Shown here piece by piece: positions 1 to 27,981 of a DNA stretch of 64,000 bases. Under the pieces are notes generated by a model. The model searched no databases. It saw nothing but the letters and a program-made list of their open reading frames with translations, and had not been told where the DNA came from. The stretch's first letter is position 1, and each line of letters starts with the position of its first letter. A program made the position numbers and the translations under genes. Source of the stretch: Giardia intestinalis (taxonomy: Eukaryota); the NCBI GenBank assembly GCA_000002435.2, contig CM018793.1. One strand, given 5' to 3'.

Positions 1-160
1 TACTAGCAATCCAGCTGAGATTTCTGCATACTATCTGCAACAGTACCCGTCAACGGCTCGCAAAACATACATATTACGGCCAGCCAATGGCCCAGAAACA
101 GTTTTTGTTCCTCACTTTGATCTACATCTCTTTAGCAAGGAGTGCGCTGTCAACGTAACT

Positions 161-1696: not shown

Positions 1697-1741
1697 GGCA
1701 CGCATGAAAGAGCTATGATGCACATGCATAAGTTACAGCTG

Positions 1742-6742: not shown

Positions 6743-6846
6743 TAATTTTTCCGAGTGTTTTGTAAAACAGTACTGCGATGCGTCAGTAAAAGCACGTATA
6801 GAGAAGCGGATAAGGCCTGATAGTTTTGCTGCCTCGCTTTTAAAAA
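6743..6846. promoter_or_regulatory. Short divergent promoter region of about 100 bp between the 1,667-aa gene (minus strand) and the Ser/Pro-rich gene (plus strand). An AT-rich initiator sits at each ATG.
   Basis: aaaaattaATG on the minus strand at 6742 and ttttaaaaaATGcc on the plus strand at 6847. Giardia promoters are known to be very short AT-rich elements at the start codon. Confidence 0.5.
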
Positions 6847-8103
6847 ATGCCTCCAAAGAACAGCCTGAAGTTAGAGCAAGAACGTACCAGAAAGCTAAAG
6901 GAAGAGGTGGAACAAATGGAGAAGGTTGCTCTTCAATTTACGTCTGGAGCGTCTTCTGCTGCGTCCATCCAGTCCGTCACTTTTGCCGGCCTCGGTACTG
7001 CGATAACATCTGGCCCAGCACCCCAGAAATCAGGACAGACCAAAGCCAGGACTACTAGTGGAAAGCCTGCACAACCCGGCTCTGCGCCTCGACAGCCTCA
7101 GGTACGTGTCCCAATGCCACCTCATGCTTCTCATGGCCCAATGGCCTCCACGAAATTGACCTCTTCAAGTACTTCTTCAACCTTGGTGAAGCCCAACGCC
7201 ATCAAATCTCCACTTCCAGCAATATCATCCAGGCCATCCTCTGGGACTATATCTGTATCGAGACACCAGGTAGTACAATCATCGAAGAACTTGCCTACCA
7301 AGCCCCAGGGGCCTGCCACAGGAGTTGGAGGCACTCGCTCTAGAAAGAGTAGCGCAAGTAGTTCCCAGGCAAACAGCAGAAAAAGCAGTATCAGTGGTCC
7401 AGAAGAAACTAGGCACCTAATTTCCGAAGCAGTAGTTAAGCAGAGCGCTATGCAGGCCTCAGAAAGTAAGCCCTCTGGGCGTATATTACGGAAGACTTCT
7501 TCGTCTGCAAATCCGCAGTCCGTCTCTAAGTTTCTTATGCGTGAAGGAGAAAACTTTACGCTTGGAAAAGACATTTTCCTCAAAGGAGATCTTCCCATAT
7601 CCACATCATGCGATATGGCCATAGGAGATGACTCACAATTAGAGTTGGACCCCTGTGATCCTCCTCCAGTCTCGAGCAAGGAAGGGCTTCATACCAATAG
7701 TACTGCACTGCAATACCAAACCCAGCCATTACAGATAACCGATACCCTAGCCATCCCCTTAGAAGAACAGTCTCCTAAGCAGCACCACATTCGGTTTGAA
7801 GTGGTCGAGGATGCTGCTGAAGAAGAGGTCCAGAACAGTAACTTAGCGGAGGCTTGCGGGATAGCGAACGAAGCAGAGGCCCCTGTGCCATATTTTGCTC
7901 AAATAGAAAAGGCTATAGTTCTCAAGACATTGACTGAGCTATCGCGTACACAGGAAAGCCCCGAGGAGCGGCATGCTCGTCTCTTGAAGGTTGCACTACA
8001 TGAGACACCCGCGCCCATTGAGGGCGTTGACGATGACTTGAACGCTGAATTAGTTGTTAGTCCCGAAGACATTATGGCAGAACTAGCAACGCTAGTAAAT
8101 TAG
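6847..8103 (+). CDS. Ser/Pro/Thr-rich low-complexity hypothetical protein of 418 aa.
   Basis: ATG at 6847 with an AT-rich initiator. Long ORF. The N-terminus looks coiled-coil (KLEQERTRKLKEEVEQMEK), followed by S/T/P-rich sequence. Confidence 0.65.
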   Translation: MPPKNSLKLEQERTRKLKEEVEQMEKVALQFTSGASSAASIQSVTFAGLGTAITSGPAPQKSGQTKARTTSGKPAQPGSAPRQPQVRVPMPPHASHGPMASTKLTSSSTSSTLVKPNAIKSPLPAISSRPSSGTISVSRHQVVQSSKNLPTKPQGPATGVGGTRSRKSSASSSQANSRKSSISGPEETRHLISEAVVKQSAMQASESKPSGRILRKTSSSANPQSVSKFLMREGENFTLGKDIFLKGDLPISTSCDMAIGDDSQLELDPCDPPPVSSKEGLHTNSTALQYQTQPLQITDTLAIPLEEQSPKQHHIRFEVVEDAAEEEVQNSNLAEACGIANEAEAPVPYFAQIEKAIVLKTLTELSRTQESPEERHARLLKVALHETPAPIEGVDDDLNAELVVSPEDIMAELATLVN

Positions 8104-8121
8104 ATAGATAGAGTCTGGAAG

Positions 8122-10380: not shown

Positions 10381-10406
10381 GAGGACGTCAGTACAAAGCA
10401 GTTAGA

Positions 10407-10413
10407 GTAAATA
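10407..10413 (+). promoter_or_regulatory. Putative polyadenylation signal AGTAAAT (AGTRAAY), 27 nt after the stop of the 752-aa gene.
   Basis: Matches the Giardia poly(A) consensus AGTRAAY, and its position relative to the stop is typical. Confidence 0.4.
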
Positions 10414-10535
10414 ATTAAGGCATTATACTGTGATCTGCAAATGATGTAGGATAGAGGTATAAGTTAGTCACGTCTCTAGCGGTTGACTTACTCCTAAGAG
10501 CCAATCAGCCATATTCTGTTAAGATTTAATTAAAA

Positions 10536-12203
10536 ATGGAGGATGGAGTAGCGAAAATTAAACCGGAGTTTCTGGTTTCTCATGGAACAAGCAATATCGG
10601 TGCGCATTCGTTGACCAAGGAAGGAGGGAGGAACGTCAATTTCGGCACCTCTAGTAACAGCTTGAGACAGCTTTGTAATAGCATCATCCTCAATAAGCAG
10701 TGTAAAAACCCAAAATGTAATGCATACCATGACTTGGATGAATTCTCTGTCTACTATACTCCTCCTCAGACATCCATTTCGTGCCACTTTTTGAAAACGT
10801 ATGGAAAGTGCCCCTTCTCCGTTAATTGCATGTACGCATCTTCTCACTTTCAGGAGTCGCTAGACGATCTATTTGCTAAAAAGTCTGTACCCACAAAGGA
10901 AGAGGTTGTCCCACTTTTAAACGCGTTCCCAGGGGCAACATTGGCAGACCTTCGACGAGGTGAATATAGAAAGTTGGGAGAAAAGCGTTCTTCTGTCATG
11001 CCATCGACTTCATTTACAAGTGCGTTCACCCGCTCAAAGTCGTCATCAGAGCAAAAGCCGCTCATGCTAGCTCCTATGTGCACCGTTGGCACCATTCCGT
11101 TTAGAAGACTTTGCATCCACTACGGCTGCGAAATTACTCTCTGCGAGATGGTATTCGCCAGAGACATTCTTCATGGAGATGCACAGGAGCTTAGAAAAAT
11201 AAAGCGCCATCCAGATGAAAAATGCTTCGGGATTCAGCTAGCAGGGCGAGGGCAGGAACTTATGGAGATAGTCAACTTCATTTCACAGTGCTGTTCGTGC
11301 GACTTCATTGACCTCAACGCTGCTTGCCCACAGGATATCGCGACAAAGAAGTGCTGTGGTGCTGCACTTGCTGCCAATCTAAAGAAGCTAGTCAGTTCTG
11401 TTGATTGCATGGTAAGAGGAGGGGAGCACTATGGTGTCCCTGTATTTCTTAAGATTCGGGCAGGGGATCTGCGCGGCGACTGGACAGGAGACTCTGTGGC
11501 ACAGGCCTTAAGGCTATCTGGTTTATATGGTTTAAGTGTCCATCTGCGTACGGCAAAGCAGCGCTACTCTAAATTAGCAAACTGGGACTACCTGGTATCT
11601 ATGCGGCATGCTTTGGATAATTGTGAAGAAAGTACAGCGCCTGATCTAGAACCACAACTTAAGCACGATATCAGTAGTAGTACCACCAACAGGCCCATTA
11701 TACGTACCCCTCCTTTGCTGGGAGGAAATGGAGACATATTCGATTATACAGATTTGCACCGTGACGACCATTCAACAGTTGACTATTATCTTATTGCACG
11801 AGGAGCACTTGTGAAACCGTGGATTTTTCAAGAGATCAAAGAAGGCCGTCGAATAGACATGTCGTCACAATCGCGACTCGAAATGCTGAAGCTTTTTGCA
11901 TCCTTCTGTTTAGAGTATTACGGATCTGACGCCCCTGGAGTTGAGAAGGCCAGAGCTCAATTCTTAGAGAACTGGAGTTTTATGTGCAGGTATATTCCCG
12001 TCGGTATACTCGATGAGCCACAGAAACTCAACCAACGGCCCCCGATGTTCCGCGGCCGTGATGAGCTAGAGACGCTAATGGCTTCTCAATCAGCCTCTGA
12101 TTGGGTCACCATCTCCGAGATGCTCTTTGGGCCTGTACCAGCGGGATTTTCCTTTGTACCGAAACACAAAAGTCATGGATATGTTTCCGAGTCTGTAAAT
12201 TAA
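10536..12203 (+). CDS. DUS3: tRNA-dihydrouridine synthase of the Dus3 type: an N-terminal CCCH zinc finger (C-x8-C-x5-C-x3-H, CHFLKTYGKCPFSVNCMYASSH) followed by a DUS catalytic domain (LAPMCTVGTIPFRRLCIHYGCEITLCEMV...).
   Basis: The LAPM...T..PFR...GA..L..TEMV signature and the downstream GIQLAG / DLNAACP..I...CCGAAL / VFLKIR blocks are collinear with the Dus family. A CCCH finger ahead of the DUS domain is the Dus3 architecture. An AT-rich initiator taattaaaaATGg sits at the start. Confidence 0.8.
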   Translation: MEDGVAKIKPEFLVSHGTSNIGAHSLTKEGGRNVNFGTSSNSLRQLCNSIILNKQCKNPKCNAYHDLDEFSVYYTPPQTSISCHFLKTYGKCPFSVNCMYASSHFQESLDDLFAKKSVPTKEEVVPLLNAFPGATLADLRRGEYRKLGEKRSSVMPSTSFTSAFTRSKSSSEQKPLMLAPMCTVGTIPFRRLCIHYGCEITLCEMVFARDILHGDAQELRKIKRHPDEKCFGIQLAGRGQELMEIVNFISQCCSCDFIDLNAACPQDIATKKCCGAALAANLKKLVSSVDCMVRGGEHYGVPVFLKIRAGDLRGDWTGDSVAQALRLSGLYGLSVHLRTAKQRYSKLANWDYLVSMRHALDNCEESTAPDLEPQLKHDISSSTTNRPIIRTPPLLGGNGDIFDYTDLHRDDHSTVDYYLIARGALVKPWIFQEIKEGRRIDMSSQSRLEMLKLFASFCLEYYGSDAPGVEKARAQFLENWSFMCRYIPVGILDEPQKLNQRPPMFRGRDELETLMASQSASDWVTISEMLFGPVPAGFSFVPKHKSHGYVSESVN

Positions 12204-12518
12204 ATTACCAAAGCACATTTATGTATCACTAGTTGGCGCTTTTGTATCTTGCTACGACTCAATGGTCTGCACATAGACTTAGGCTAACATAGCGGATTCA
12301 TCCTCGACGCCAGATAGTCTCATTGTGCACGTTCTCCTTTGCTCATAGTATGTACTGCACAAGGCTTTGCGTCAGCTGTGGGTGTCACTCTTCGCTTCTG
12401 AAGCTCGCCCAGCACATAGCGCAGGGTTCAGTGCCGAAGACAGGAGACCGTGGGCCTGAGCAGAGGAGCAAGCGCAGGATGAGACTATCTTTCGGACACT
12501 CCTTACTGCTATTAGCTA

Positions 12519-14684
12519 ATGTTCGAAAAAATTCTCTTCACAAACTGCATATTGCAATTGGCCTGGATAATACAAACAGTAGCTGGGGCATGCACACCGG
12601 GAGAAACTGGTCCAACTAAGTGTAAAACCTGTGACGCTATCATAGGCACAGACAGCTATTGCAGCGAGTGTGACCAGGCGGGCGAAGGACCCATCAATGG
12701 AGTATGTACAAGCGAGCTAAGCGGCAATACTTGCGCTAATAAGATATGCACCCAGTGCGTAAAGAATTACTTCTTATATAAAGGAGGATGCTATAAATTT
12801 GCCGAATCACCGGGAAACATCATATGTGAAGACGCGATAGATGCAGCTGGCGGAACGGACGGAGTGTGTACCACGTGCAAGGCTGCTAACGGCTTCTTCA
12901 AGCATCCCGCCCCTGCAGAAACAAAACAGTCCTGCATTGCTTGTAATGAAACGGCCGGAGTCGTGGACAGTGACACCACGTACAAGGGTACATCCAACTG
13001 CCTGAAGTGTGACCCGCCCGCTGCTGCAATTGGAGCTAGAGCAGATAAAATGGCAGTGTGCACTCTTTGCGATCAGACTAAGTATCTCAAGGAAAGCGCA
13101 TGTGTCGAGAAAGCAGGGTGCGGCGCCAACATGTTTGGTAAGCCAAGTGTACAGGACGGGAATAAATGCATTGCGTGCGGGGATTCAAATGCTGGTATAG
13201 AGGGTTGCGCTGAGTGCACTGCGCCTGATGAACCAACTATTAAACCCACCTGTACAAAATGCACCGGTAACAACTACCTGAAAACCACAAGCGAAGGCAC
13301 GTCGTGCGTACAAAAGGAACAATGTAATGGGGCCTACTTTCCTAATGATAGTGTAGACGGTAAGAAACAGTGCGTTTCGTGTGGCGATGCAACTAATAAA
13401 GGCATAACCGACTGCACTGCATGCAATCTACTCAGCAGTCCGCTAGAAACAGTTCTTATTAAATGCTCTGCCTGCAGAAGTGGGAAGAAGCCTAATGAAG
13501 ATGGATCTGCGTGCGTCGATGCCCCAGGGCCCTCTCCAGAAGAATGCTCGATCGAAGGATGTCAGATATGTTCGGATGACAAAAAGACGTGTGATAAGTG
13601 CCAATCAAACAACTATCTCACTCCAACAAAACTCTGCATATCTGATTGCAAGAAGCTCGGAAACTATTATTTAGCTACCGAGCAAACAACTGGGAGCTGC
13701 AGGGAGTGCGCTATGGTTAATTGCAAAGAGTGTACTGAGAACGGTAAGTGTGGAATATGCAACGATGGCTTTTACCTCCTGAATGAGGAATGTAAGCCAT
13801 GTAATGATAGTTGCAAGACGTGCGAGGGTGGAGTGGAATCTGATAAGTGCACTAGCTGTAAGTCTGGAAGTGCTCTTATTTATGCAGGCAACGGAAATAC
13901 AGGCACATGTAGTCTTGGTTGCATACCCAAATCAAGTGCAGATCCTGGGTCTTGCAAGACATGTGATTTAGCTATTGATGGGACAAAGTATTGCTCAGTG
14001 TGTAATGTGGATAAAGAATACCCTCAAAACGGAGCTTGTGCTGGCATCAAGGCGCGTGCATCCTCATGCCAAGATGGAAATGTTAATAATGGTGTATGTA
14101 GTAAGTGCGAGACAGGGTTCTTCCTTATGAATGGGGGATGTTATGAAATAACCAAGTATCCCGGGAAAACAGTTTGCAGTAAGACAGCGGCTGATGGTAC
14201 ATGTGAGACACCCGCGACCGGCTTTAGTCTAAGTAGCAATACACTCAAAGCTTGCTTTGAAGGTTGTGCTAAGTGTGCTACTGGTGACGATTGTTCTGAA
14301 TGCATCAGCGGCTATGTATCAGGTAGTACCCCTAATAGTTGCGAAAAGTGTAGTACTGGTTGTGCTACATGCTACCCTACTGCCACGACTTGCACATCTT
14401 GTCTTGCTGGATACTATCAATCTGGACCTAAGTGCATTGCCTGTGATAAAGATGATTCTACTATCAAAGGTATTAGTAATTGCTTGAACTGCGCCCCTCC
14501 ATCGTCTGGTAGTGGCTCTGTCCTCTGTTATCTCATGAAAGGTGCCGACAACAACGGCGGGAGCACGAACAAGAGCGGCCTCAGCACAGGCGCCATAGCG
14601 GGGATCTCTGTCGCTGTCATCGTTGTTGTGGGGGGCCTCGTCGGCTTCCTCTGCTGGTGGTTCGTGTGCCGGGGCAAGGCGTGA
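12519..14684 (+). CDS. vsp: Variant-specific surface protein VSP-A (721 aa). It has the signal peptide MFEKILF..., many CXXC motifs, a C-terminal transmembrane helix and the CRGKA tail.
   Basis: An in-frame TAG lies immediately upstream of the ATG. The tail is NKSGLSTGAIAGISVAVIVVVGGLVGFLCWWFVCRGKA*. AGTAAAC sits 8 nt after the stop. Confidence 0.93.
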   Translation: MFEKILFTNCILQLAWIIQTVAGACTPGETGPTKCKTCDAIIGTDSYCSECDQAGEGPINGVCTSELSGNTCANKICTQCVKNYFLYKGGCYKFAESPGNIICEDAIDAAGGTDGVCTTCKAANGFFKHPAPAETKQSCIACNETAGVVDSDTTYKGTSNCLKCDPPAAAIGARADKMAVCTLCDQTKYLKESACVEKAGCGANMFGKPSVQDGNKCIACGDSNAGIEGCAECTAPDEPTIKPTCTKCTGNNYLKTTSEGTSCVQKEQCNGAYFPNDSVDGKKQCVSCGDATNKGITDCTACNLLSSPLETVLIKCSACRSGKKPNEDGSACVDAPGPSPEECSIEGCQICSDDKKTCDKCQSNNYLTPTKLCISDCKKLGNYYLATEQTTGSCRECAMVNCKECTENGKCGICNDGFYLLNEECKPCNDSCKTCEGGVESDKCTSCKSGSALIYAGNGNTGTCSLGCIPKSSADPGSCKTCDLAIDGTKYCSVCNVDKEYPQNGACAGIKARASSCQDGNVNNGVCSKCETGFFLMNGGCYEITKYPGKTVCSKTAADGTCETPATGFSLSSNTLKACFEGCAKCATGDDCSECISGYVSGSTPNSCEKCSTGCATCYPTATTCTSCLAGYYQSGPKCIACDKDDSTIKGISNCLNCAPPSSGSGSVLCYLMKGADNNGGSTNKSGLSTGAIAGISVAVIVVVGGLVGFLCWWFVCRGKA

Positions 14685-14691
14685 CTTAGGT

Positions 14692-14698
14692 AGTAAAC
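14692..14698 (+). promoter_or_regulatory. VSP poly(A) signal AGTAAAC.
   Basis: The conserved VSP 3' flank cttaggtAGTAAACgcatctcctattacatctgct. The same element occurs at 29954-29960 (plus strand), 23448-23454 (minus strand) and 38710-38716 (minus strand). Confidence 0.7.
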
Positions 14699-14913
14699 GC
14701 ATCTCCTATTACATCTGCTCAGCAGCCTTGCGCAGAAGTCCAGGAATGAGTGGCCACGAAGCAGGGTCTCCTGACGTCTCGAGTAAACATACATAGTGCT
14801 CGCTCTGCGTGGAGCATCGAAAGCCCGGCGCGGTGTAGCCACGGCTGCTGGTTGGAGCGGAACGCGTTGGAGCTTTTTGAAAATGGCCCTACCCCGTGCC
14901 GGCCACGCGGCCT

Positions 14914-15534
14914 CTAGACCAGCGAGGCGAGGAGCTTCGTGATCCCCGGGCGCGCGCGGTAGCCATCAAATAGCTCGCGCAGCGGCGGAAACTGGTCCAC
15001 GAGCTCCGGACACTCTGCGTCCGCATAATACAGGACCTCCAGGACCGCGTAGTCCGAGTCGAGCGGCTCGAACGCCAGGCTCCGAAGGTTCAGCACGTCC
15101 CGGGTCAGGACGGTCAGCCCCGGAAGGATCCTGTTCTGTCGGTAGGCCGCGATGCACTCCGAGCGCGTCATCTCTGCCCCAGCGGCAAGGGCCTCTGCCA
15201 CGGCTTTGGGCTCCTTCCAGGCGGCGGCAAGGAGATCCTCACAGAAGAGCACCAGGGCCCGCGCAGCAGCCTGCACCTGCAATGACGTGCTGTACCGCCC
15301 CAGGCTCGCCCCCAGGTACTCCAGGATGACCATGCCCCCGGCCACCCGCGCCGCGCTGTCTTCCCACACGGGGAGCGTGCACGATGGTGCACCCACCTTC
15401 GCCGCGGCCACCTGCTCGGCGCTCGCCAAGGGCGCCCACTCGTACCGTATCTCCAGGTCTGCGAGCAGGAGCCGGCACTTCAACGCGGTGCCCCGGGCGT
15501 CGTAGTACGTGAGTCTCGGCGGAACTACGTCCAT
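14914..15534 (-). CDS. Glutathione-S-transferase-fold protein (about 206 aa). The N-terminal thioredoxin-like domain resembles sigma/pi-class GSTs (RLTYYDARGTALKCRLLLADLEIRYE ... CTLPVWEDSAARVAGGMVILEYLGASLG). A GST-like C-terminus is also present (FPPLRELFDGYRARPGITKLL).
   Basis: Motif-level match to the GST N-domain (YFxxRGRAExIRLLL ... QLPVLExDG...QSxAIxRYLA) and to the C-terminal F-P-x-L-x-x-W/F-x-x-R-x-x-x-R-P-A/G signature. I trimmed the track's TTG start to the ATG at 15534, which has the initiator gaagtaaaATGgac. The gene lies in the GC-rich part of the left arm. Confidence 0.5.
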   Translation of the reverse strand: MDVVPPRLTYYDARGTALKCRLLLADLEIRYEWAPLASAEQVAAAKVGAPSCTLPVWEDSAARVAGGMVILEYLGASLGRYSTSLQVQAAARALVLFCEDLLAAAWKEPKAVAEALAAGAEMTRSECIAAYRQNRILPGLTVLTRDVLNLRSLAFEPLDSDYAVLEVLYYADAECPELVDQFPPLRELFDGYRARPGITKLLASLV

Positions 15535-18500
15535 TTTACTTCTCTGGTGGGCTCGTATCAACTGTGCCAAGGTGCGAGGCAACCCCTGGCACGCGGGCCA
15601 CCTCTCCCGGGGGGAGATCCTTGGGTTTCAGTTTACTATCTGAGCGCCAGCTTCATGTAGCTGCTATACGTTGCTAACTGCTAGTACCTGCATAGATAGT
15701 GGTGGGGTTGGGGTGGACACTAGGCTGGCGCGATTTATGGAGGTCGTTTGCCTCCTGGGTCGTTTGAACCTCGAGGGTCCGGAATCTTCCAGTTGGACCC
15801 TCTAAATCATATCACGAACCATCAGACGGAGAGACCGACCCACAGCTGGTCAAAAGGGTCGGCAGTGATCGCAGCCACTGTGTCACTCGAGGACCTGTTG
15901 GGGCCCGGGACTCTGCAGAAGCTCCTCACTAGTTCGGTCTTGAAGTCCACGCTCTTGTGTGCCAAGATCCACGTCTTGTTATGCGTGCCGTGCTTTCCAG
16001 TATAATCGTGCTTATACTTGTCGCCCTCTCTAATGCAGTTTCTAATGCTACCATGACGGGACTTCTCGCTATTTTGTGCTTCATGTTTGTCAACACGGCC
16101 TAGGTGCCCTGCTGTCTGTTCTGCAGCCGCTTCATCTCCTGCTAGAAGGAAGCGAGAGCCCTTGGGTATCCGGTAAGACTTCTGAGTAAACGAGGTAATG
16201 CTTCGATGAGTGTACGTTAGTCGCATCGGCACAGAGCGCGTACTAACCAGACGAAGTCACATGTCTGCTAACTTCTATATAATATTCTAAAGCTATCCGG
16301 TCTCTGGGTGGCACCGCCAGGTGTGTAGTGGGGCCCGTGGCCATTAAGACCCAGAAGGGCCTCTTCTCCTACTTGGCTCCGGAGTCAGTCCCAGTAGAGC
16401 ATTGTTATGAGGCTGGTGTGCAGAGAGACACCGGATAGTTTGTACCGGTACACACCCCTTGTCCCCAGACGGCACTCACCAGGAGTAGGCATTCGTAGAA
16501 CCGCAGCATCGTGGGCTTGTGCACCGCTCGCTGCCCATGCACGTGTAGCTGCAGGCACACAAGCCAGTCGAGAGGCGCTCACTTGCCGGAGCTCCCTAAT
16601 CACTGTTCAGAACACCGAACCGACGCCCCTGCCAGCGCGCCGCTCTTTGTAAGATACCCCAGAGGAACTCCAGTCGTCGCTCAACAGCGTGCATACCCGA
16701 GGCCTCTGTCTAGGGAACACTGCGCCCGCCTCTGCATGTCTTGAAGTGCAGAAAAGAAGGTCTACCGATAGAGCCCTACACCATGTCCAGACATCCTATG
16801 TTTTCAGAATCTTCGCGCAAGGATAAGAGGTAGGATGGGCAGAACTTGGCTGGCCTCGCGTCATGCAGATAGCGATGCTATGCGTACCACGTGATTGCAT
16901 GTCACCGCACAAAGACAAGAGCCTGTATCAGCAGCCGACGGCATTTTACCAGTAGACCGAGGGACATTCCCGCACTGTACTCATTCTCCTGTGTAACTTT
17001 CAAGCATGTTCGGTCGTGCTGGACGCTGCCTTTAGTCATATCTTGCTGAATAGCCAACGCAGTTGGCAGTGACCCCAAATATAGTGCGCCTTGCCTAATT
17101 CAGACTCCGGGATAGGCGTGTGGAAGACAAGCAGACGCATAGTATGGAGCACAGAGAGCCGTAGAGACAGTTCTAAGCGCATCATAGAGAAGCAGAGTGG
17201 GCTGTGGCCTCATGTGGTTAGAGGTATATGATCGTATAGTCTTCTGTTCAGGACACATATCTTGGGAGCCACTGCGTTGAGTCCTCTAGACCATCACTTG
17301 GAGGGCGAACCGTCGTGCAATGCAGGGCTGCATGCCAAAAGACACATGTCTGTCAGGAGAAGGTCGAAGGACGGATCCACAGGCATTGCATGACTTGCTG
17401 GCATTCTTCTGTACAGAGCGTAATGCCTCGTGACAGGGAAGTCGTAGTTTTGTCACCAACCCCAATAGGGCTAAGGCATGATCAACGCAGAACTATGCAT
17501 TCCTGCTGTGGTGTCCACAGAAGTGCTTGTCGAAGAGGATGTTCGCGCTCTCTGAGGGTACACACGAGGAGGGGCTGTGTAATGCGAAGAGCCGGGCACA
17601 GACCTTAAAGGGCTCAGGCTCGTGGTCATAAAAAGTCGCTCCTGCCCGTCTCCGCGGGTACTGCAGTCCTCGATGGTGGATCATCGCATCTTCTCCTTAA
17701 CCGGCACATTGGCAGCCTGGTCTCTGGCGCAGGCACGCAGAGCATCGGGCCAGAAGCGCCGACTCGTTACCTCCTTTGCTCAGCCAAGTCCCGTGTTGGC
17801 CACAGAACACGCGTGTCTGCCCCCAGTGCGTAGCCGCTGAATCCTCAACAGAGGGACGTGTTCAGAAGTCTACGCTAACGCAGCCCACTGCAAGCAAAGT
17901 TCATCTGTCTCTCAGAGAAGAGGCGGCTGGGCCGTGTGTTGCGCATCAAGAGGCCTTTGTGAAGGGCGCCCGCACGTCTCGTCACACATGTGCGTCCGAG
18001 TGACAAGTAGCAGCCGGCGATACGGCCGCCCTCGGCTTCGCAGACACAGCGGGTGTGCTTACTGGTGTTCAAAGCAGTATGCCGTTGATCGTGGCATGCC
18101 TTTTCTCCAGGAGGGCTGGACGCCACTCGAATTGTGACTGTGTGCCATAGACGGGTGCTCTCCTTGTTACTCTGTAACACTCGTGCGCATCGGGACCGGC
18201 GATTCGCATCTGTGATCCAGACAGGAGCAGCGTCTTGTACTTCCGAGTAAGATGCAGCCGGCCCGCGAGCCTACGTGCCGATCTATAGTCTATAACAAGC
18301 AAGCGGCAACCACTTGGCGTGCTACTCACGTGGACATTGCAGACTCTGCATCTGAATCGAGAGGCTTGACAGCGTACCGATTCCACGCTTGGCCGTCATA
18401 GGAGCCGCTTCCTTCTGCTCAGTAGTAAGCAGTCCGGCTTTACCGGTAGGAATGATCGATATAGCTGAGTGGCCCGAATAGACCCTAGTGACACCACGGC

Positions 18501-19526
18501 TTTCTGTTTATATTAAACGCCTTCGCTGTACTGGGGTCTCAGTGAGAAGACGAGCACAGATCCAGGCATGCAAGCCTTTAGAGATGCGTACTCCACGCAA
18601 TTCCGGTGTGCTCGCCTGACGAGTCCTACTGCTCTAGCCGGCATACCGTTAGATCCTTCTGTACAGATTGAGCGAGCAGATATTAGCATACGGGTCACGT
18701 TAAGTACCTATGTTCAAGGCAGCTGCTGTTGAACGGGCACACCCAGAGCCACTGTCACGTAAGATGCCAGCAAGATTCGCGGCCGCAGATCACACTGTAA
18801 TCTGGCGACTGATTTGGTCATGTCGCTTCTTTATCGGCTGGAAACTCGACTGGAAGCGACAGAGAGCACGTCGGGAGAACTCGATGGGAGAGGACTGGCA
18901 GGGCTTCCTGCGCCACGGGGGGAGCCACCGCAGGAGGACGCGCAGGCACGCACGCCAGGCCACAGTAGACACGCGGACGCCCCTGTAGACTGGGCCGGCA
19001 GCAGGCGTCCGCAGAATCCGCGCCAGAGCCAGCTGCTCAAAAAACTGGGCAGCCTCTGGTCGTGTGCAGGCCTTGCAGAGCGCTGCGGCTCCCGACACTC
19101 GGCGACCCCTCTCAGAGCGGAAGACCCCGCGGGCCGCAGGCAGCAGCTCGTCGTCGGCGATGTCCCGAACGAGGGGGACGGCCCCAGCCTGCCTGCCTCC
19201 GCAGAGCTCTGGGTGTCTGCAGACAAACCGGGGCTGCGCAGGGCGCGGCTCTCCCTGGCGGCCGAGGGCGGGGATCCCCGGCAATACCAAAAAACTCCGA
19301 TCAATACATCAACCCCGGCGCCGCCGTGTGCAAAGCAGTCTGTTCTGTGTGGCGACCTAAGCCAACTCGTACTGCGGCGATGGCCCGGATGAGGGCGCCC
19401 TGCTCGCCCGACGGACCGGGGCAGGCAGGCAACAAACACCCGCTAAAACTTTTGCGCAAGGCCTGTACATATTTAATTTCACATTATTCGTTGGTCTGTT
19501 TTTAGTTTTATCGCCGCTTCTATTGG

Positions 19527-20117
19527 ATGGGCTCTGGGGCAATGACGGCGGAGACGCGCGCCTCCGTTCTGCTCGAGCTCGCGAAGCAGGTCGTCGCTGC
19601 CCGGCGGCTGGGGGAGACGGCCGAGAGCCTCGCGCGGCGGCCGCTGCTCCTCCACCGGCACGTGCTCCGGACGGCCATCGACTGGAAGAAGATCGCCCGC
19701 GCCCTGTCCGAGGACCGGAGCAGGATCTACCACTGGTACCGCGAGACGCACTCGCGGAGCATCCTCAACGTGAAGATGACCGGCGAGGACCGCAGGGCCA
19801 TCAAGGCGATGATCATCGCCGGGGTCAGGGACCGGAGCATCCTGGGCCCGGACTTCTACCGCAGGGTCCACGAGCGCTTCGGGGCGAAGTATCCGCGCCA
19901 GGAGCTGCGGATGACGTACAACAACGCGCTCCGCACCCAGGACGTCCGCGCCGCCCTGGAGGAGCATGGGGTTCTTCCTGGGCCCGGCACCCTCTCGCTC
20001 CAGACGGGCCAGGATCTTCTCGGGCCGCCCACTTCCTTCGCATGCGTGCCATGCTTCCCCCCTGCGGGCTACGGGGGCGTGCCTGGGTGCGCTGATACAT
20101 ACCCCAGTAAGGGCTGA
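19527..20117 (+). CDS. Low-confidence hypothetical ORF (196 aa) with a possible Myb/SANT-like or HTH segment (TAIDWKKIARALSEDRSRIYHWYRETH). An identical mirror copy lies at 33291..33881 on the minus strand.
   Basis: Starts with ATG. Its amino-acid composition is balanced compared with the Arg/Pro/Gly-rich ORFs around it in the GC-rich block. It shows the W..IA..L....R....W.R.. spacing of helix-turn-helix domains. There is no strong initiator and the region is GC-rich, so chance ORFs are expected. Confidence 0.25.
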   Translation: MGSGAMTAETRASVLLELAKQVVAARRLGETAESLARRPLLLHRHVLRTAIDWKKIARALSEDRSRIYHWYRETHSRSILNVKMTGEDRRAIKAMIIAGVRDRSILGPDFYRRVHERFGAKYPRQELRMTYNNALRTQDVRAALEEHGVLPGPGTLSLQTGQDLLGPPTSFACVPCFPPAGYGGVPGCADTYPSKG

Positions 20118-23100
20118 AGACTGGAGAGCCCGGCTTGCCTGGTGGTCGTCGAGGGGCATCGACGAGTGGTCGGTAGAAACGGCTAATAGTTGAAGTCCTG
20201 GTCAGTGGCGAGACAGTCATTCCTAGAGCGTGTAGCATGCTCGGCCACTTCATAACGCAGGGCCCACCAGACGCAAGCTGTGACGGCCTGGATGTCGCGC
20301 AATCCGTGGCCTGTGCATCGTTGCAGGGGCCATACACAGCAGGTGGAGGCAGGGTTTCCTGTGTGCTCAGACGACTCGACCATCGCAGTTCTGGGTCGAC
20401 GATCCACTAGATATTCCTGTCTAACAACGGGCGGCCGAACGCCCTCTGGGCTGTGAGCTAACACTAACGTGCAGTTGGTCGGCCACCAGATCCATCTTGG
20501 TTAGCCCTCTGCCTACATGCGCCAACACGCCGAGGAGCTACAGGGCAGTCGTTTGCTGTCTTGACAGGTATACTATTGCCTCTATATCTGCACCCTGGAT
20601 GCGGCCACCATAGCACAGTTGCATCTCTGATCATCCTGTGCACACCTTCTGGCACGAGCAGGTGCGCCGGAAGGGATGCACTGCCCACCGCCGAGAAATG
20701 GATGAACTCCCTTACCCAGGAGCCGGCTGACCACTAGCCGTGCCCAGCAAACCCCAATAAGCAGGCCTGCTGAGCCAACCCATCCAAGAAGCTGTGTATC
20801 CGGAAGAGCTTCGCGTCGAATGGCTCCTTGATTAAAGAAGCTGGCATCCAGCGCGACATGACGACTGCTCGCCTGGTGCTGTGCTACCTGCTGGGCGGAA
20901 ACACAGACGCCCTAAGCTCCGTGTGAGCTTGTGCTCAAAGCGTCCTTCACCGGCACGGGATTCCAGGAACTAGGCGTAGATAGGAAGAGCATTCCCCGCT
21001 AGTGCCACGAAGTACCGGTACGCTACCTGGATACACCGATGGCAGCGAAGAGTACGAGAAGGTCCCAGGGCCTCATCGAGCGGGTCTGCTCCTAGCAGGC
21101 CCAAGTGGACGCTCTCTCCAGCAGTGTACAAGAAGCCTGGGAGGGAGTGCTCAGGCTGGAGCTGAGGCGTTGCTGGTACAGGCTGTCCTTACTGAGTGCA
21201 TCCCTCAGCGTCCAATAAGTGGAAAAGTGACCGGAGCTAGGTGTGCCTGCTTCTTCTCTGCCGCCTGCATGTTGTTGCATCTCTAGCTCTTCCTCATTTG
21301 TCGAGCGACTGCTCCTTCTGGCCTCTTGCTGGTCCTCGTTCGTCGTGTAGTCTCTTTTGGAGCTGCTCCCTGGAGGTCGGGCTGACCAGCAACATGGAGG
21401 AGCCTCATTCTTAGCTTCACACTCCACAACTGGCCCAGCGACATGTTGACCATTTTACAAGCAGTTCTGGGTCGCCCAGTCTGGGGCCGGCTGCTGTGCA
21501 TTCTCTGCTTGACTGCCAGGGTCCGCGTCTGGCCCAGACACTAGATGGACAGGAGGCACGGACAAACGCCATTTGCTTGTTGCTTTCATGATCCACGAAG
21601 CTGCTGTCTTTATGTGAGTCTCGACCCAGGTCGGTCTCCGTTGTAGGTGCAACAGTCTTGCGCATGCAATCTGGAGGATCTACGTTAGCGGGTCGAGCCG
21701 AGCAATCCTTGTTAGCGCCTGCCATCCGACGTCTCTGTTGTTGAACTGGCCTGTAGAAGTCCGCTATAGGCCCTCAGGCTCTTTGTCTGTGAGGTTCTGT
21801 GAGGTCCTCTATACCGGTCAGGCCTGTCCGCGTACTCTGTTGATGGGCGAGCTGGTGCATGCAGTCACAGCCCCTGCGCCACCTTCCATTCGGCACTCGG
21901 CGTGTCCACCTGCTTCCGGCCTGCCCTCGCAGAGCACGCTAAGCGCCCACCTATAGCGCATGTCGGTGGAGACTCCTCGGGAGCAATTTGCGGGGGTCTC
22001 GATGAGGTGGCCGACGCCCAGTGAACGACCCCAAGCCACCCTTTAGTGTCTGCGCTGTCGCTCCACGAGAGTGCGTAGTGGGATGCGGCCCGGAGTCCTC
22101 ATGTGCGGGGGCTGACAAGGACTGACAGCCACAGTCAACGGCAGAAAGTTCGGCACCCCGTGTTCCCACGACGTCTCCGATCGCAGTACTGGCGGGGCCT
22201 GACGGCGCTTCTCTTCTTAATTCGGAACGAGTTAAGGAGTTTCCGCCGTAGGATGGCCGAACTGGCGGCCGGCAGGGCTGTGCGATGTGTTAGAGATTGT
22301 TAGAGATTCATACTGTATATTGTGCAGTGGCTAACGTGTATGGGTGTCCCACCGAAGACCCGGCGAAGGATGGCACCGGAGGTGAGACAGGATGACTCCT
22401 GGTGGAGGGGACCACGGTGCTGGCTTGCCTGCAGATGCCGTGGCCAAAATCTCAGCCCGTCCAGGAGTTTAACGGAGGTCATGCGGCCGGACACCGAGGC
22501 CTACCGGAGAGCCGCATCGCCCCTGCACGAGCCAGCAAGCACTGCCTTCGACCCGACCACAGTTGAGAGCGCCCATGTCCGTGGATGCCGTCGGTCAGGT
22601 CCCTGAAGACCACCCTGCTCACAGCCCCAGGGATCCCTCTGCAGACTCTGATTTCTATATCCCTGGGGTAGATGTTTGCGGATAGCGGCACAGGGCTCAG
22701 CAAAACCGCCAGAAGATCCACAGCACACTGTCATTAACTATAAACGTCTTGCGGTATTCATTCCACAATTGAGCCGGTCGTACTGACACAGGAACTGGAG
22801 TCAGGCACTTCTAGGGTGCAACTACAGGACTGTGGAGGAGCTTGCCTTCACACAAAGAAGATCACGTGGACCAGATGTGCCCGGACTGAGAAGCGCCCGC
22901 TTTACCGAGTAATGGTCGCTAATCTATGCACACAGATCATGTTTGGCGGCAAGCTCCCCTGTAGCTCATGCATCACTGTGAATCACTGCCTAGAGGCTTG
23001 TGTTGGAGATGCCGCAAGACACTAATGGCTGACAGGTGTGACTAGCCGTTCTTCCAGTGGTCGTCTCTGGATGCACCGAGTACCTAAGGCGATAGATCAG

Positions 23101-23461
23101 CGCTGCAGGCCTTGACTGTCACGGGCCTTGTGCATAGCTGATCAAATGCCCAACACACTCTGCCCGAGGGTGCCCAAACCCCACGGTGCTGTAGTCGGGC
23201 TGCTAAGGTGCGAGAGGTGGGGCACAGAGGCGCCTATCAGAGCCAAGGATCTATGTGTCACCTGCCTCTGGGTGGAGCAACTACGCCATAGTAGGGGGTG
23301 TTTGTTGCCATACAGAAGTGGGTACGATGAGATACGAAGGCACAGTCCTGCCGCAGAATCCGACGGGTGCTCGGAAACGGGTAACCCGGTAACCTCGTAG
23401 AATAGCAACGTCGAAGCTATAGAGTAAGCAGATGTAATAGGAGATGCGTTTACTACCTAAG

Positions 23462-25426
23462 TCACGCCTTGCCCCGGCACACGAACCACCAGCAGAGGAA
23501 GCCGACGAGGCCCCCCACAACAACGATGACAGCGACAGAGATCCCCGCTATGGCGCCTGTGCTGAGGCCGCTCTTGTTCGTGCTCCCGCCGTTGTTGTCA
23601 CCAGTACTATCACCCATCTCGAGGCACATGAACGCACTGGTGGATGACACCGTGCACTGTCTGCACCCAGCGAGCCCCTCAGAGCACTTCTTGCACGGTC
23701 CACTATCGCTACTCTCCTTATAATATCCACGAGCACATACTTTGCATGTGGCAGCCGCGGTTTCGCAGGTGTAGCAGCTTTCATGACATTTCGTGCAAGC
23801 TTTGACGTTACTGAATGCTATGTATCCATCCATACATTCTGTACATTCATTTGCAGTATTACACGTCTTACAGCCTTCAGGGCATATTACAAGGTTGTTT
23901 TCATTATTTAAGTTAAACCCTGGCATAGGTCTATCACAAGTCCCACCAGTTGTCGCCACTGTTGCACATACACTGTGCGCAGGGTACTTCTCATCTTCGT
24001 AGCACCCTCCGTTCATCCGAAGGAGCCCATTAGCACACGAATTGCAGACACCGGTTCCTTGAGAGGTGCATGTCGCAGCCCGCCCACTTGGTTTCGGTGC
24101 ACAGACACCGTTCTGGGGATACTCATTGTCCTGGCTACATGCAGAGCAGTACCTTGTGCCTTTAACAATTAGATCACATGCTTTACAGTTCCCAGTGGCT
24201 TTATCTGTATTGACAACACATTCAGGAGCGCATTTACCCTTCTGCCCATTTGCATAGTCAAGGATGGTTCCAGGTTTGCACTCAGTACAATCATTAGCAG
24301 TGTTTCCCTTACAATTCTTGCAACTACCGTCACACTTCTGGCATATCCCAGCATCGTCAGCATAGAATCCATCTTCGCAGAAACCGCATTTGCCGTTCGG
24401 ATCACACACAACGCAATTCTTGACCTCGCACTTCTTACAGATCCCTTTGCCGCCCTCTGTGCTGCTGTAGTAGCCTAGAATATATTCGCAATATTTTATG
24501 CACATCCCTGTCGGAGTGAGATAGTTCTTGTCCTTGCACTCCTCACATGTCTTCTTGTCTGCAGAACATTTCTGGCAGTTCTCGACGGGGCAGTCAGAGG
24601 GCGGAGGTTCTGGGGCATCGACACATGTAGATCCCTCGTCATTGGGTGTCTTTCCGCCGTTACACGTAGTGCACTTGATAGCAGACTCTCCAGCTAATCC
24701 GCGAGCTTCCTTGAGAGTACATGTCTTACAGTCAATTATGCCACCGGCGTCGGTGTCTCCACACGGGACGCATTTTTTGATACCCTTAGCTGTGACAGGG
24801 AAGTGGTCTGTCTTACACTGCGTCTTTTCAACGCAACTAGAAGGCGTTACAGCTAATAAATAGTATTCGCCCTCACACGTAGTGCATGTGGCAGAGCCGG
24901 GGCCTTCAGGAGGAGTACACACTTTGCAGTTCGGAACACCTCTGAAACCATCAATCGTATCTGCCTCATTGCAGGCAATGCAAGATTGGTGGGTGTTATC
25001 GCTAGCACCCATATTTTTGAAGAACCCGTTAGCGTCATTGCATGTTTCACAGAGTCCTGCACTACTACTCGCACTTTTGCAAACGGTTTGTCCAGGAGGT
25101 GCTGCTTGTACATAGCATCCACCTTTGTGGAGGAAGTATCCAGCCTTAGTACACTTTCCACATGTGGTTGAATGCTCATCGAGAGCTCCATCAACTTTTT
25201 CACATCCGGCAGTTGTGATAAGCCCATCACTTTTATCCTTACATTCCCCATTAATGGGCACCTCTCCAGGTTTAGCACAGTCAGTGCAAACTCTATCTCC
25301 ACCTATGCTAATGCATTTACCCTGTTTACACTGTCCTGTTTGCGGGTCACTGCTAGCCTCTGTGCATGTTTTTGCTGCCCGTGCTACTTGCAGAATCAAA
25401 ATTCCAAAGAGGATTTTCTCGAACAT
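23462..25426 (-). CDS. vsp: VSP-B copy 1 (655 aa from MFEKILFGILILQVARAAKTC...). It has a CRGKA tail and is transcribed away from the palindrome centre.
   Basis: 100% identical at the protein level to 27982..29946. I chose the MFEKILF start by homology with VSP-A; the track ORF extends upstream to a GTG at 25642. The poly(A) signal is at 23448-23454 on the minus strand. Confidence 0.9.
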   Translation of the reverse strand: MFEKILFGILILQVARAAKTCTEASSDPQTGQCKQGKCISIGGDRVCTDCAKPGEVPINGECKDKSDGLITTAGCEKVDGALDEHSTTCGKCTKAGYFLHKGGCYVQAAPPGQTVCKSASSSAGLCETCNDANGFFKNMGASDNTHQSCIACNEADTIDGFRGVPNCKVCTPPEGPGSATCTTCEGEYYLLAVTPSSCVEKTQCKTDHFPVTAKGIKKCVPCGDTDAGGIIDCKTCTLKEARGLAGESAIKCTTCNGGKTPNDEGSTCVDAPEPPPSDCPVENCQKCSADKKTCEECKDKNYLTPTGMCIKYCEYILGYYSSTEGGKGICKKCEVKNCVVCDPNGKCGFCEDGFYADDAGICQKCDGSCKNCKGNTANDCTECKPGTILDYANGQKGKCAPECVVNTDKATGNCKACDLIVKGTRYCSACSQDNEYPQNGVCAPKPSGRAATCTSQGTGVCNSCANGLLRMNGGCYEDEKYPAHSVCATVATTGGTCDRPMPGFNLNNENNLVICPEGCKTCNTANECTECMDGYIAFSNVKACTKCHESCYTCETAAATCKVCARGYYKESSDSGPCKKCSEGLAGCRQCTVSSTSAFMCLEMGDSTGDNNGGSTNKSGLSTGAIAGISVAVIVVVGGLVGFLCWWFVCRGKA

Positions 25427-27981
25427 TGCCAGCAGTCCGTAGAGCATCCAGTAGAGAGAGCCTGCACACCTAATATCAGTGTGCTGTGTCGCTAGACATC
25501 GCTTATGGGGGCGGTCCAGAGGTCTTACATGAGCTGCCCCAACTTTCTGATCAGTTTGGAGACGATGGCTGGTTCTAGACAGCAAACAGGGACTCCTCTT
25601 TATTAGCATATCTAAAACCTGGCACCTTCCCCGGCCGCTCACCCTGGGATTTAGCTCACTTGCCCACTTGCGTCGTCCACCAATGGCGCCTCTCCTTGGT
25701 CTTCCTTCGTGGTGGGTGAAGCTCCGGTCGCTGTCTTTTTTAGATGCTCCCGTCTGTCAGGGGCTGCCATCGGGCTCTCCACTGGCCGCCCCTCGGTGTC
25801 CGTCTGGCTGTGGCCCGGGCAGCGCTCTACAGTCGCGGTCACTTGGGTCTCAGCGGGCCAGCTGGTGGGGAGGCTGGGGCATGGGGCGGTGAGGCTGGAG
25901 GGTGGCGGTGTCGTCTGTGCCCCTGGTCCGGTGGGCCATTGGGGTGGTAGGTGATCCCCTCTCTGTTTGCCAAGGTGGTTGTGTCTGATCTCCAACCGTC
26001 GTTGTACTCCCGAGACAAAGGCACCGACGATCGTGTCGTGTCCCCCTGACTGAGCGCCTCCTCTCAGCCCCTGCATGTCTCGGGCAGTACTGCTTCTCTG
26101 TTTGACTAGTACGTGAGGGTCAAAGCAGGCCATCCCAGGCCCTCCTGATGCTCTGTGCGGGTCTGCTGAGCCCCCTGGCATGCCCTGTCTGGTGCCTCGA
26201 CGGTAGTTCACCTCGGGCCAGCAGGGGCATGGATGACCCTGTGGATGGGATGGGTTCTCTCAGGCCTCTAGTGTGATGACCCAGAAGACTGACACGGTGG
26301 GGCACCAGTGACTGCACTGTCCCCGTGGTCAGCTGTGCTGCCCCTGGTGGGTCCTCGTTGTAGAGCGCTGTGTGTTGTTCATAGGCAGAGGTGAGCCTCC
26401 TTGGTCTCAAGATGCTCTACCATGCAGAGAGGAGCACGCTGAGGGTCACCCATACCTCACACCTGCTGTGTCCTCGGGGAGTTCCCGGTGTGATCCACTA
26501 GGACCTTGACCCCTCTCGTGGCTCTGATGACTCGCCTCAGGGAGAGTCGGGGCACCCTATACTGAGGGGTGTGCACCCTCCTGCATGAGCTGGGACCCAC
26601 TGCACTGCCCCCAAGGAGGTCTGCTATGAGAGGCAGTGAATGATTGACAGCCCCTCAGAGTGCGGTGGAGGGTGCTCGTGGTCGTCTCTTGTGATCGGGC
26701 ATCACTCTGATGGTCGGCTCCTGTGCCTGCGTGGTGCTCAGAGGTCACCTGTCTGCCTCGTAGCCTGCTGGACAGCCGGGCCTCTTGTGGCGTCCGAAGG
26801 TCTCCTCACTCCTCTGGTCGCTGTCCCCTCGGGTCATAGGTGGAGGCCAGCGAGTCTTCGGAGTCTGGTGCCTGCCTGGGTGTCATGGAGAGGCTGGCAG
26901 CTATCAAGGCTCTGCCACTGCTCGCCTGCCTGGAGTGTGCCTCCCTTGGGCCTGCTCTGCTGTGCTGCGTGAGTCCTCTGGCTCCTATCAGACCTCTGAT
27001 TGTGAGAGTGACTCCACCTGGCCTTCTGATGCCCCTGTGGATGAGCATAGCAATGTGTCTGGTTGAGGATCTCTGGTGCCCGTGGCTGTCACTGCCTCTC
27101 GGGTGCTTGGGTAGTTGCCTGGGGCTCTCGTATGGGGGCACAGTCTGTTCGTGTGTGGATGGTCCTCCTGGACTCATGTCCATCTGTGCACACTGTCACT
27201 CAGCCTCGAGAGCAGACCAGTGCAGTCACCAGGGTTGCTGTCAGAGGGAGTCGTCTGCCACTACCATCGTTCGAGCAGACTCTACAGCTCAGGCTGGCTG
27301 CTGTGCACCCTCATGGCAGGGCTGCTTGACTCCCCTTGGTCATCCTCTCTGTCCCGGTGCACACGGCTCCTGAGGGTTGTCTGGGTGGAGGCACTCACAG
27401 ACCACGAGCACACAGAGGGATGAGTCACAGATGGACAGCCCCCAGTCACCACAACTGCAATCACCCCAGTCCACCGAGAGGTCAGGGGCACAGACGACAC
27501 CGCCACCCTCCAGCCTCACCGCCCCATGCCCCAGCCTCCCCACCAGCTGGCCCGCTGAGACCCAAGTGACCGCGACTGTAGAGCGCTGCCCGGGCCACAG
27601 CCAGACGGACACCGAGGGGCGGCCAGCGGAGAGCCCGATGGCAGCCCCTGACAGACGGGAGCATCTAAAAAAGACAGCGACCCGAGCTTCACCCACCACG
27701 AAGGAAGACCAAGGAGAGGCGCCATTGGTGGACGACGCAAGTGGGCAAGTGAGCTAAATCCCAGGGTGAGCGGCCGGGGAAGGTGCCAGGTTTTAGATAT
27801 GCTAATAAAGAGGAGTCCCTGTTTGCTGTCTAGAACCAGCCATCGTCTCCAAACTGATCAGAAAGTTGGGGCAGCTCATGTAAGACCTCTGGACCGCCCC
27901 CATAAGCGATGTCTAGCGACACAGCACACTGATATTAGGTGTGCAGGCTCTCTCTACTGGATGCTCTACGGACTGCTGGCA

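Follow-up and report, generated by a model that had tools for sequence, protein, structure and literature searches.

The genes that encode variant-specific surface proteins (VSPs) in Giardia intestinalis isolate WB lie in regions that have been described as high-GC islands (Franzén et al. 2009, PMC2723961). Their surroundings are gene-poor, and 19 duplicated VSP pairs, including 137722/137723, have been catalogued along with duplications that span several genes and extend over as much as 20 kb (Xu et al. 2020, PMC7000408). In identical inverted VSP pairs the identity of the flanks ends 139–729 bp from the open reading frames (ORFs; Adam et al. 2010, PMC2996952). A preprint has quantified the long, GC-richer intergenic regions of VSP genes and has reported doubtful hypothetical genes and transposon relics (10.1101/2022.03.07.483299). 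Here we analyse a locus of this kind within a 64,000-nucleotide stretch of WB contig CM018793.1 (assembly GCA_000002435.2; "the window"), in which an earlier note had singled out a GC-rich, gene-poor block of about 8.7 kb at 14720–23430, lying between convergent VSP genes and mirrored at 29,980–38,690. Our comparisons indicate that this interval makes up one arm of a large, near-perfect inverted duplication apart from the VSP gene in that arm, and that it belongs to a typical VSP-associated high-GC island, a reading that we consider likely even with the mechanism proposed below included. The feature is real, but its kind has been described before and the reference genome carries an annotation of it; the one atypical trait is that the two copies stay identical for a further 8.8 kb on the 3′ side of the VSP genes.

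With 58.6% G+C, the block at 14720–23430 (mirror at 29978–38688) stands well above both flanks, which have 45.4% (1–14511) and 45.6% (43300–64000). Its 1-kb windows have a mean of 0.586 and none is below 0.537; in the 35 flank windows the mean is 0.456 ± 0.021 and the highest value 0.502. The compositional contrast that had been noted is thus borne out by the computed profile, in which every window of the block stays above every window of the flanks. The impression by eye that some two-thirds of the bases near 18.9–19.4 kb are G or C proved equally sound: G+C reaches 0.697 at 19.0–19.3 kb, one of several local maxima of about 0.70 (the others are at 15.1–15.4 and 19.6–19.9 kb). The interval is GC-rich throughout, as claimed, but it is not the whole of the GC-rich zone, which runs from about 14.5 to 43.3 kb at 0.53–0.66 per kb and takes in the unique stretch between the two inner VSP genes (62% G+C) as well as 38.9–42.7 kb (about 56% G+C). 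Three VSP genes lie within this zone and a fourth, at 12519–14684 (0.478 G+C), lies at its left edge. Credible gene sequence, namely a glutathione S-transferase (GST)-like gene, a Myb-like gene and a 5S rRNA gene, accounts for about 1.3 of the 8.7 kb, which leaves the block about 85% non-coding. The locus therefore combines G+C above that of the surroundings at VSP genes with gene-poor, long intergenic stretches, as in the known VSP high-GC islands, and it also resembles them in its doubtful ORFs and in a possible retrotransposon relic near a head-to-head pair. We find no essential difference from these islands; what is added here is the dissection of one of them at base level. The striking compositional anomaly is a documented property of antigen-gene neighbourhoods, and neither foreign DNA nor a new element.

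The block is contained in a much larger palindrome. A repeat search outlines two arms at 14512–25946 and 27462–38896, and base-by-base comparison of these reveals 38 mismatches, 35 of which fall at the two ends (25 at 14517–14633 and 10 at 25926–25939) and only three internally. The left arm proper spans 14634–25925 and the right arm, its reverse complement, 27483–38774. Over these 11,292 nt the arms differ at positions 15207, 25725 and 25781 only (99.97% identity), and they enclose a unique spacer of about 1.5 kb (25926–27482; approximately 61–62% G+C, with more T than A on the plus strand). The arm divergence of 0.027% equals the allelic heterozygosity of WB, which is 0.03% (Xu et al. 2020, PMC7000408). 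Each arm consists of the reported block plus one complete VSP gene, and the centre is an identical head-to-head VSP pair; besides the VSP gene, each arm holds the three credible genes mentioned above. The mirror recognised earlier is therefore real, but it is only part of a palindrome whose 11.3-kb arms include VSP genes.

The junctions of this palindrome differ in character. The inner junction is abrupt and lies 478 nt 5′ of the VSP start codons, whereas the outer ends of the arms fade within the conserved 3′ ends of two further VSP genes, at 12519–14684 (plus strand, 721 aa; left outer junction, convergent with the VSP gene at 23462–25447) and at 38724–41090 (minus strand, 788 aa, Pfam VSP E = 3.7e-67; right outer junction). 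The 3′ ends of the four VSP genes of the window are 91–100% identical to each other, and the junctions point to these 3′ ends as recombination substrates. The limits first given for the block, 14720 and 23430, turn out to coincide with the inward-facing limits of a perfect inverted repeat of 173 nt that convergent VSP tails form: the 3′ end and poly(A) signal of VSP 12519–14684 (14547–14719, plus strand) recur as an inverted copy of 100% identity at the 3′ end of VSP 23462–25447 (23427–23599, minus strand). The equivalent pair of VSP tails in the other arm is only 91% identical. A local tract of conversion is suggested by this difference, and inversion of the block between the 173-nt repeats would in principle be possible.

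The two inner VSP genes, at 23462–25447 on the minus strand (ATG at 25447; KAE8304974) and at 27961–29946 on the plus strand (KAE8304975), each encode 661 aa. Their ORFs are identical and inverted, both products end in CRGKA, and the 2,513 bp between them, within the 2–4 kb of non-coding DNA expected of such pairs, contain no ORF with codon periodicity or a Pfam match. For chromosome 5, Xu et al. 2020 (PMC7000408, Table 2) list a divergent pair, 137722 and 137723, of 661 aa with a distance of 2513 bp. Size, orientation and spacing all agree, and the locus is thus the VSP pair GL50803_00137722/137723 on WB chromosome 5. Exact sequence look-ups assign the encoded proteins to WB (ATCC 50803) and place all of them on a single contig of 4.02 Mb. 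The annotation proceeds through KAE8304971 (GST-like), KAE8304972 (GL50803_0060223) and KAE8304973 (GL50803_00113864) to the VSPs KAE8304974 and KAE8304975, and continues on the mirrored side with KAE8304976 (d113864), KAE8304977 (d60223) and KAE8304978 (GST-like protein); the "d" locus tags indicate that in the reference annotation these mirrored genes already count as duplicates. In its identical 661-aa ORFs placed head to head, here 2,513 bp apart, the pair resembles the vsp1267-type pairs (PMC2996952, PMC7000408), and the end of identity on the 5′ side also falls within their published range of 158–729 nt upstream. On the 3′ side, identity in the published head-to-head pairs ends 141–203 bp past the stop codon, whereas here it extends for 8.8 kb, takes in three more genes and reaches the tail of the next VSP gene. 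The flank identity of about 140–730 bp that is characteristic of inverted VSP pairs is accordingly found on the 5′ side and not on the 3′ side.

Near-identical arms are also a feature of the human Y-chromosome palindromes P1–P8, which range from 9 kb to 1.45 Mb and are kept alike by arm-to-arm gene conversion; GC-biased conversion has been reported in their arms. The Giardia palindrome shares with these its arm identity above 99.9%, its unique spacer and its multi-copy genes, but its arms measure 11 kb, its rise in G+C is not confined to the arms, Giardia has no known meiosis, and conversion would be one of two ways to account for the likeness of the arms. A second comparison is with GC-rich recombining regions. 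GC-biased gene conversion has been proposed for Giardia rDNA, and for rDNA and subtelomeres (Escobar et al. 2011, as cited in PMC10123126), and the GC-rich, recombination-prone subtelomeres of Cryptosporidium canis are likewise attributed to it (PMC10438818). Common to these regions and the present locus are a local rise in G+C, multi-copy contingency genes, and an effect on non-coding and silent sites together. The present locus differs in being internal rather than subtelomeric, and the argument for conversion draws here on five paralogues.

Codon-position periodicity in the block is strong only at 14880–15600 and 19440–20040, that is, at the two genes that had been picked out as a GST-fold ORF and a possible helix-turn-helix ORF. 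Both are real genes, although the statement that they are the only plausible genes of the block overlooked the 5S rRNA gene. The GST-like gene (14914–15534, minus strand; KAE8304971, with its mirror KAE8304978 at 37874–38494 on the plus strand) encodes 206 aa and has a G+C content at third codon positions (GC3) of 0.85. WB contains three copies, the third of which is on another chromosome. The protein matches Pfam GST_N_2 with 27.1 bits against a cut-off of 25, as expected for a thioredoxin-like N-terminal GST domain, while GST_C_3 scores 14.4 bits and stays under its cut-off of 21.6. It can be aligned over its full length, though weakly, with eukaryotic Pi-class GSTs (E = 4e-5), and the Pi and Alpha classes are its nearest. 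The GST unit (14859–15727) matches a contig of isolate P15 in which the GST-like gene abuts housekeeping genes. In P15 contig ACVC01000177.1 (L002), positions 1–1438, upstream of the GST-like gene at the contig end, have 72% G+C without any rRNA, and the neighbouring housekeeping genes have 40–47%, which makes for a very sharp compositional border.

The Myb-like gene GL50803_00113864 (19527–20117, plus strand; KAE8304973) has its mirror, d113864, at 33291–33881 (KAE8304976). Its GC3 is 0.95, and it is preceded by a stretch of 32% GC, as is typical for Giardia promoters. Between WB and P15 (assemblages A and E) the gene is 95.5% identical without a single indel, and the 134 nt upstream are 89% identical. 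The family has about nine copies in WB and 62 representatives among 1.84 billion proteins, and the closest members are all from Giardia. We conclude that GL50803_00113864 is a conserved Giardia-specific gene and a candidate for a Myb/homeodomain-like helical fold. A Pfam search of the protein returned no Myb/SANT match at E ≤ 1, a PDB profile search returned nothing relevant, and a structural comparison with the PDB by Foldseek yielded no match of significance; a literature search with the identifiers of the family genes also found nothing. The family therefore differs from Myb/SANT/homeodomain proteins such as SNAPc subunit 4, Cef1/Cdc5, Reb1, c-Myb and TRF1 in having no sequence-profile match to them, in being confined to Giardia and a few relatives, and in that its DNA binding is putative. 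Missing from the copies in the palindrome is an in-frame proline-rich stretch, about 73 aa long, which the 269-aa WB paralogues have; contigs L011 and L012, from other samples, show the same deletion.

The third gene is a full-length 5S rRNA gene at 22145–22264 on the minus strand, with its mirror at 31144–31263 on the plus strand. In both arms it matches Rfam RF00001 over model positions 1–120 with 88.3 bits (threshold 38). Upstream of it, at 22306–22321 (−57 to −42), lies AATATACAGTATGAAT, which fits the TATA-like 16-nt consensus published for Giardia at 16 of 16 positions, as does its counterpart in the other arm; the published AT-rich element of Giardia 5S genes is located at −58 to −43. 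Since WB has ten 5S rRNA genes in total (Xu et al. 2020, PMC7000408), two of the ten lie in the palindrome. When arm and spacer were scanned with Rfam at permissive thresholds, this gene alone was detected. A general linkage between 5S and Myb-like genes was considered and rejected, since none of the ten other loci compared (L001–L010) contains a 5S gene; the linkage is specific to the present locus. Scans of metagenomes found neither Giardia 5S genes nor Myb-like relatives.

Both strands of the block are filled with overlapping ORFs, which the earlier note had taken for a signature of high G+C rather than for coding sequence. All of the examples it gave exist (18790..19290, 18814..19392, 18831..19439, 19479..20159, 19523..20095 and 19825..20337). 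Open stretches of at least 60 aa number 81 in the block against 72 ± 5 in dinucleotide shuffles, which reflects the rarity of stop codons in GC-rich DNA. ORFs of at least 150 aa are in excess (nine, against three expected from shuffles), but eight of these nine fall within 18.7–20.4 kb, where the Myb-like gene with its GC3 of 0.95 suppresses stops in the other frames. A Pfam scan of 26 individual ORFs of the block and spacer gave nothing above threshold. With no periodicity, no Pfam match and a density as in shuffles, the overlapping ORFs are a by-product of high G+C and not genes.

This bears on one annotated gene, the hypothetical protein GL50803_0060223 (18820–19392, plus strand; KAE8304972), whose mirror d60223 (KAE8304977) lies at 34016–34588 on the minus strand. 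Its WB and P15 versions share 74.4% identity and are separated by 12 indels, of which most have lengths that three does not divide; the substitutions are spread evenly over the three codon positions (43/48/52). The non-coding DNA upstream of it, at 72.5% identity, is indistinguishable from it in this respect, and it has neither codon periodicity nor an AT-rich promoter. GL50803_0060223/d60223 is thus probably a spurious gene model. Three ORFs of the old annotation (113865, 116271 and 97698) are absent from the new one. An ORF of 134 aa at 15822–16226 on the minus strand has near-identical counterparts in isolate DH (ESU34729 and ESU36687) that are named "tRNA-dihydrouridine synthase 3, partial". 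It shows no similarity to the real tRNA-dihydrouridine synthase 3 gene, which lies 3.6 kb away at 10536–12203, and the name looks like an annotation artefact. The surrounding 1.5 kb (15728–17242, 47–60% GC) has neither a supported ORF nor an RNA-family match.

About 6.9 of the 8.7 kb of the block have homologues in six other Giardia contigs (L001, L002, L003, L004, L011 and L012). A dispersed repeat unit around the Myb-like gene (17243–20874, plus strand) has paralogous copies in other contexts: the P15 contig L003 matches from 17243 and an assemblage-A contig, L001, over 18764–20874, each with unrelated neighbour genes, and a truncated relic of the unit lies 3′ of a divergent paralogue in the DH locus L004. 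Contig L011, from another assembly and sample, is collinear with 18637–23281 at 96.6% identity and has the 5S gene in place, which indicates that the arrangement is real and conserved. Contig L012 (assembly ERZ28528424) is covered 62.7-fold, as compared with 22–25-fold for single-copy contigs (an excess of about 2.6-fold), and it breaks inside the 5S gene, both as expected of collapsed repeats. This collapsed contig is 3.9% diverged from WB, and its coverage gives a hint of arm-to-arm conversion.

The spacer is of interest because published retrotransposon relics lie between head-to-head VSP pairs (10.1101/2022.03.07.483299). Its base composition is almost identical to that of the non-LTR (long terminal repeat) retrotransposon found in the DH locus L004. 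A tblastn search with the reverse transcriptase (RT)/zinc-finger ORFs of that element gives a marginal match (E = 0.008; best high-scoring pair 26929–27135). In tblastx, a collinear chain reaches E = 3.7e-10 and so surpasses all 15 shuffles, the best of which has 4.7e-6, although the shuffles also reveal that these E-values are inflated. A 45-nt match of 82% to the 3′ end of the element (E = 1.2e-5) lies at 25685–25729, inside the left arm. By these similarities a Giardia non-LTR retrotransposon may have left a weak relic, collinear with the element, on the minus strand of the spacer, which would fit the published pattern. The spacer (25947–27461) also has a CpG observed/expected ratio of 0.37, compared with 0.65–1.0 elsewhere in the island, with 24% T and 15% A; the relic may explain this strand asymmetry, but it does not explain the CpG depletion.

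As a mechanism, we propose that conserved VSP 3′ ends recombined through their homology, or served for template switching, and so gave rise to the inverted copy; this would be the simplest origin. That both outer junctions lie in VSP tails and that the abrupt inner junction cuts the putative relic, which begins in the left arm and runs on through the spacer, suggests that the left arm and spacer are the older part, and the right arm would then be an inverted copy joined within the retrotransposon relic. The arms would be either very recent or held identical by arm-to-arm gene conversion. The rise in G+C affects silent and non-coding sites and probably reflects regional, recombination-linked GC-biased gene conversion rather than coding constraint or a foreign origin. 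The non-coding bulk of the block has 55–60% G+C and consists largely of segments that recur in Giardia genomes (the GST, Myb-like and 5S units). The GC3 of Myb-like paralogues tracks their surroundings, being 0.95–0.97 in islands with flanks at 0.55–0.59, 0.67 at a border with flanks at 0.40 and 0.58, and 0.47 in ordinary DNA with flanks at 0.45–0.48, which argues for a regional process that acts on silent and non-coding sites alike.

Several observations weigh against this interpretation. The GC3 trend comes from five paralogues in about three independent contexts. The spacer and 38.9–43.3 kb are as GC-rich as the arms, and arm-to-arm conversion alone is thus insufficient to account for the composition. 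The GC3 of 0.95 is far above the 0.58 of neighbouring non-coding DNA, and selection on codon usage is possible in both protein-coding genes. A very recent duplication would by itself explain the identity of the arms, without gene conversion, and the excess coverage of L012, which is a contig of a metagenome-derived assembly, could reflect other copies. The pair is also atypically large, with flank identity reaching 8.8 kb past the 3′ end as compared with the published 139–729 bp. Finally, 15728–17242 has no homologue in any Giardia locus compared and no annotation.

The origins suggested earlier, a degenerate mobile element, a laterally acquired segment or a decayed gene array, were weighed together with two further explanations. 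If the block were a degenerate retrotransposon of the GilM/GilT/GilD type or a DNA transposon, the Myb-like gene could be its surviving or domesticated DNA-binding ORF. This is unlikely: the possible relic is restricted to the spacer, and within the block the RT/zinc-finger ORFs of the L004 element find no RT, endonuclease or zinc-finger remnant by tblastn (all E > 1, none better than E = 1.5). No ORF scanned has a transposase or RVT Pfam match, and the VSP tails are the sole terminal repeats found. The Myb-like gene, moreover, is strongly conserved between assemblages A and E, its divergent paralogues sit in ordinary compact single-copy contexts (L007–L010), and the long members of the family have no extra domains. 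Lateral acquisition or decay of a VSP or other gene array would account for a composition so sharply unlike the flanks and for a position between VSP genes, and arrays of VSP pseudogenes are common in WB (Xu et al. 2020, PMC7000408). Yet close relatives of the GST-like protein are found in Giardia only (87% identity in P15 and 66–68% in two others) and its best alignments beyond these are to eukaryotic Pi/Alpha GSTs; the closest Myb-like proteins are likewise all from Giardia, and the 5S gene is Giardia's own, with Giardia's own upstream element. Three VSP proteins used as tblastn queries match the four VSP genes only and nothing in 14720–23430 at E ≤ 0.01, and periodicity is confined to two genes, which together make a foreign segment or a decayed array highly improbable.

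A more functional alternative holds that the GC-rich island is kept by selection as a chromatin or regulatory domain for VSP control, and perhaps for 5S transcription by RNA polymerase III (Pol III). Throughout the genome, VSP loci and high-GC islands fall together, and Franzén et al. proposed that the islands have a regulatory role; compared with other genes, VSP genes have longer upstream regions with a higher G+C (10.1101/2022.03.07.483299). In another isolate the Myb-like gene, the non-coding DNA and the 5S gene follow each other in collinear order, and a gene with a putative DNA-binding fold resides in the island. However, the non-coding parts are only about 72–74% identical between assemblages A and E, with many indels and no sign of constraint, in contrast to 95.5% for the Myb-like ORF and 89% for its 134-nt promoter region, and 5S is the only RNA family found even at permissive thresholds. 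We therefore regard selection for such a domain as quite improbable. The possibility that chimeric long reads created a false palindrome, in which case the mirror would be an artefact of assembly, also deserves mention, because palindromic artefacts are known from PacBio data, the arm identity is extreme, and the "d" duplicates of 113864 and 60223 appear only in the long-read assembly. Against this stand the three internal differences between the arms, the 1.5 kb of unique asymmetric sequence that separates them, and the two different, complete outer VSP genes in which they end. Both VSP copies have been separate RefSeq entries (XP_001709467 and XP_001709469) since the Sanger assembly of 2007, the collapsed segment has about 2.6-fold coverage in an independent short-read assembly, and optical maps served as a check on the WB assembly (Xu et al. 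2020, PMC7000408). An artefact is hence hardly credible.

An inverted duplication within a VSP-associated high-GC island thus remains the preferred explanation, and it can be taken one speculative step further. VSP islands might be internal recombination hot spots in which GC-biased conversion both homogenises arms and raises G+C, and on which the Myb-like family acts; in this full form the idea is a long shot. The putative DNA-binding Myb-like factor might then have a part in VSP silencing or switching, act at a boundary, or serve 5S transcription by Pol III. To our knowledge, Giardia has no known meiosis and lacks TFIIIA and TFIIIC. Were biased gene conversion shown to shape the islands, this would be relevant to the long-standing question of recombination in Giardia. 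The Myb-like family (GL50803_00113864 and about eight paralogues) marks borders of GC-rich islands. In DH contig AHGT01000031.1 (locus L004, 10001–20879), a divergent paralogue is located exactly where 38–50% GC turns into 54–64%; after it come the relic of the GC-rich Myb unit, then an ankyrin gene, and also a retrotransposon ORF with an intact RVT_1 domain. Together with the 5S genes in a VSP palindrome, the likely spurious gene and the CpG depletion of the spacer, the occurrence of the family at island borders is a new detail that could be of use to Giardia annotators and to researchers of antigenic variation.

The right-hand side of the window offers some further observations. The 2.6 kb or so located 5′ of the outer VSP gene (41091–43699) have 50–62% G+C without an ORF of at least 150 aa and form the right rim of the island, beyond which lies an ankyrin-repeat gene. 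The outer VSP gene itself (38724–41090) has 57.5% G+C, compared with 48–50% for the other VSP genes, and contains 3.7 copies of a 201-bp tandem repeat that are 100% identical (40063–40803). A 201-bp repeat has been mentioned for vspA6-S2 (Adam 2010, PMC2996952).

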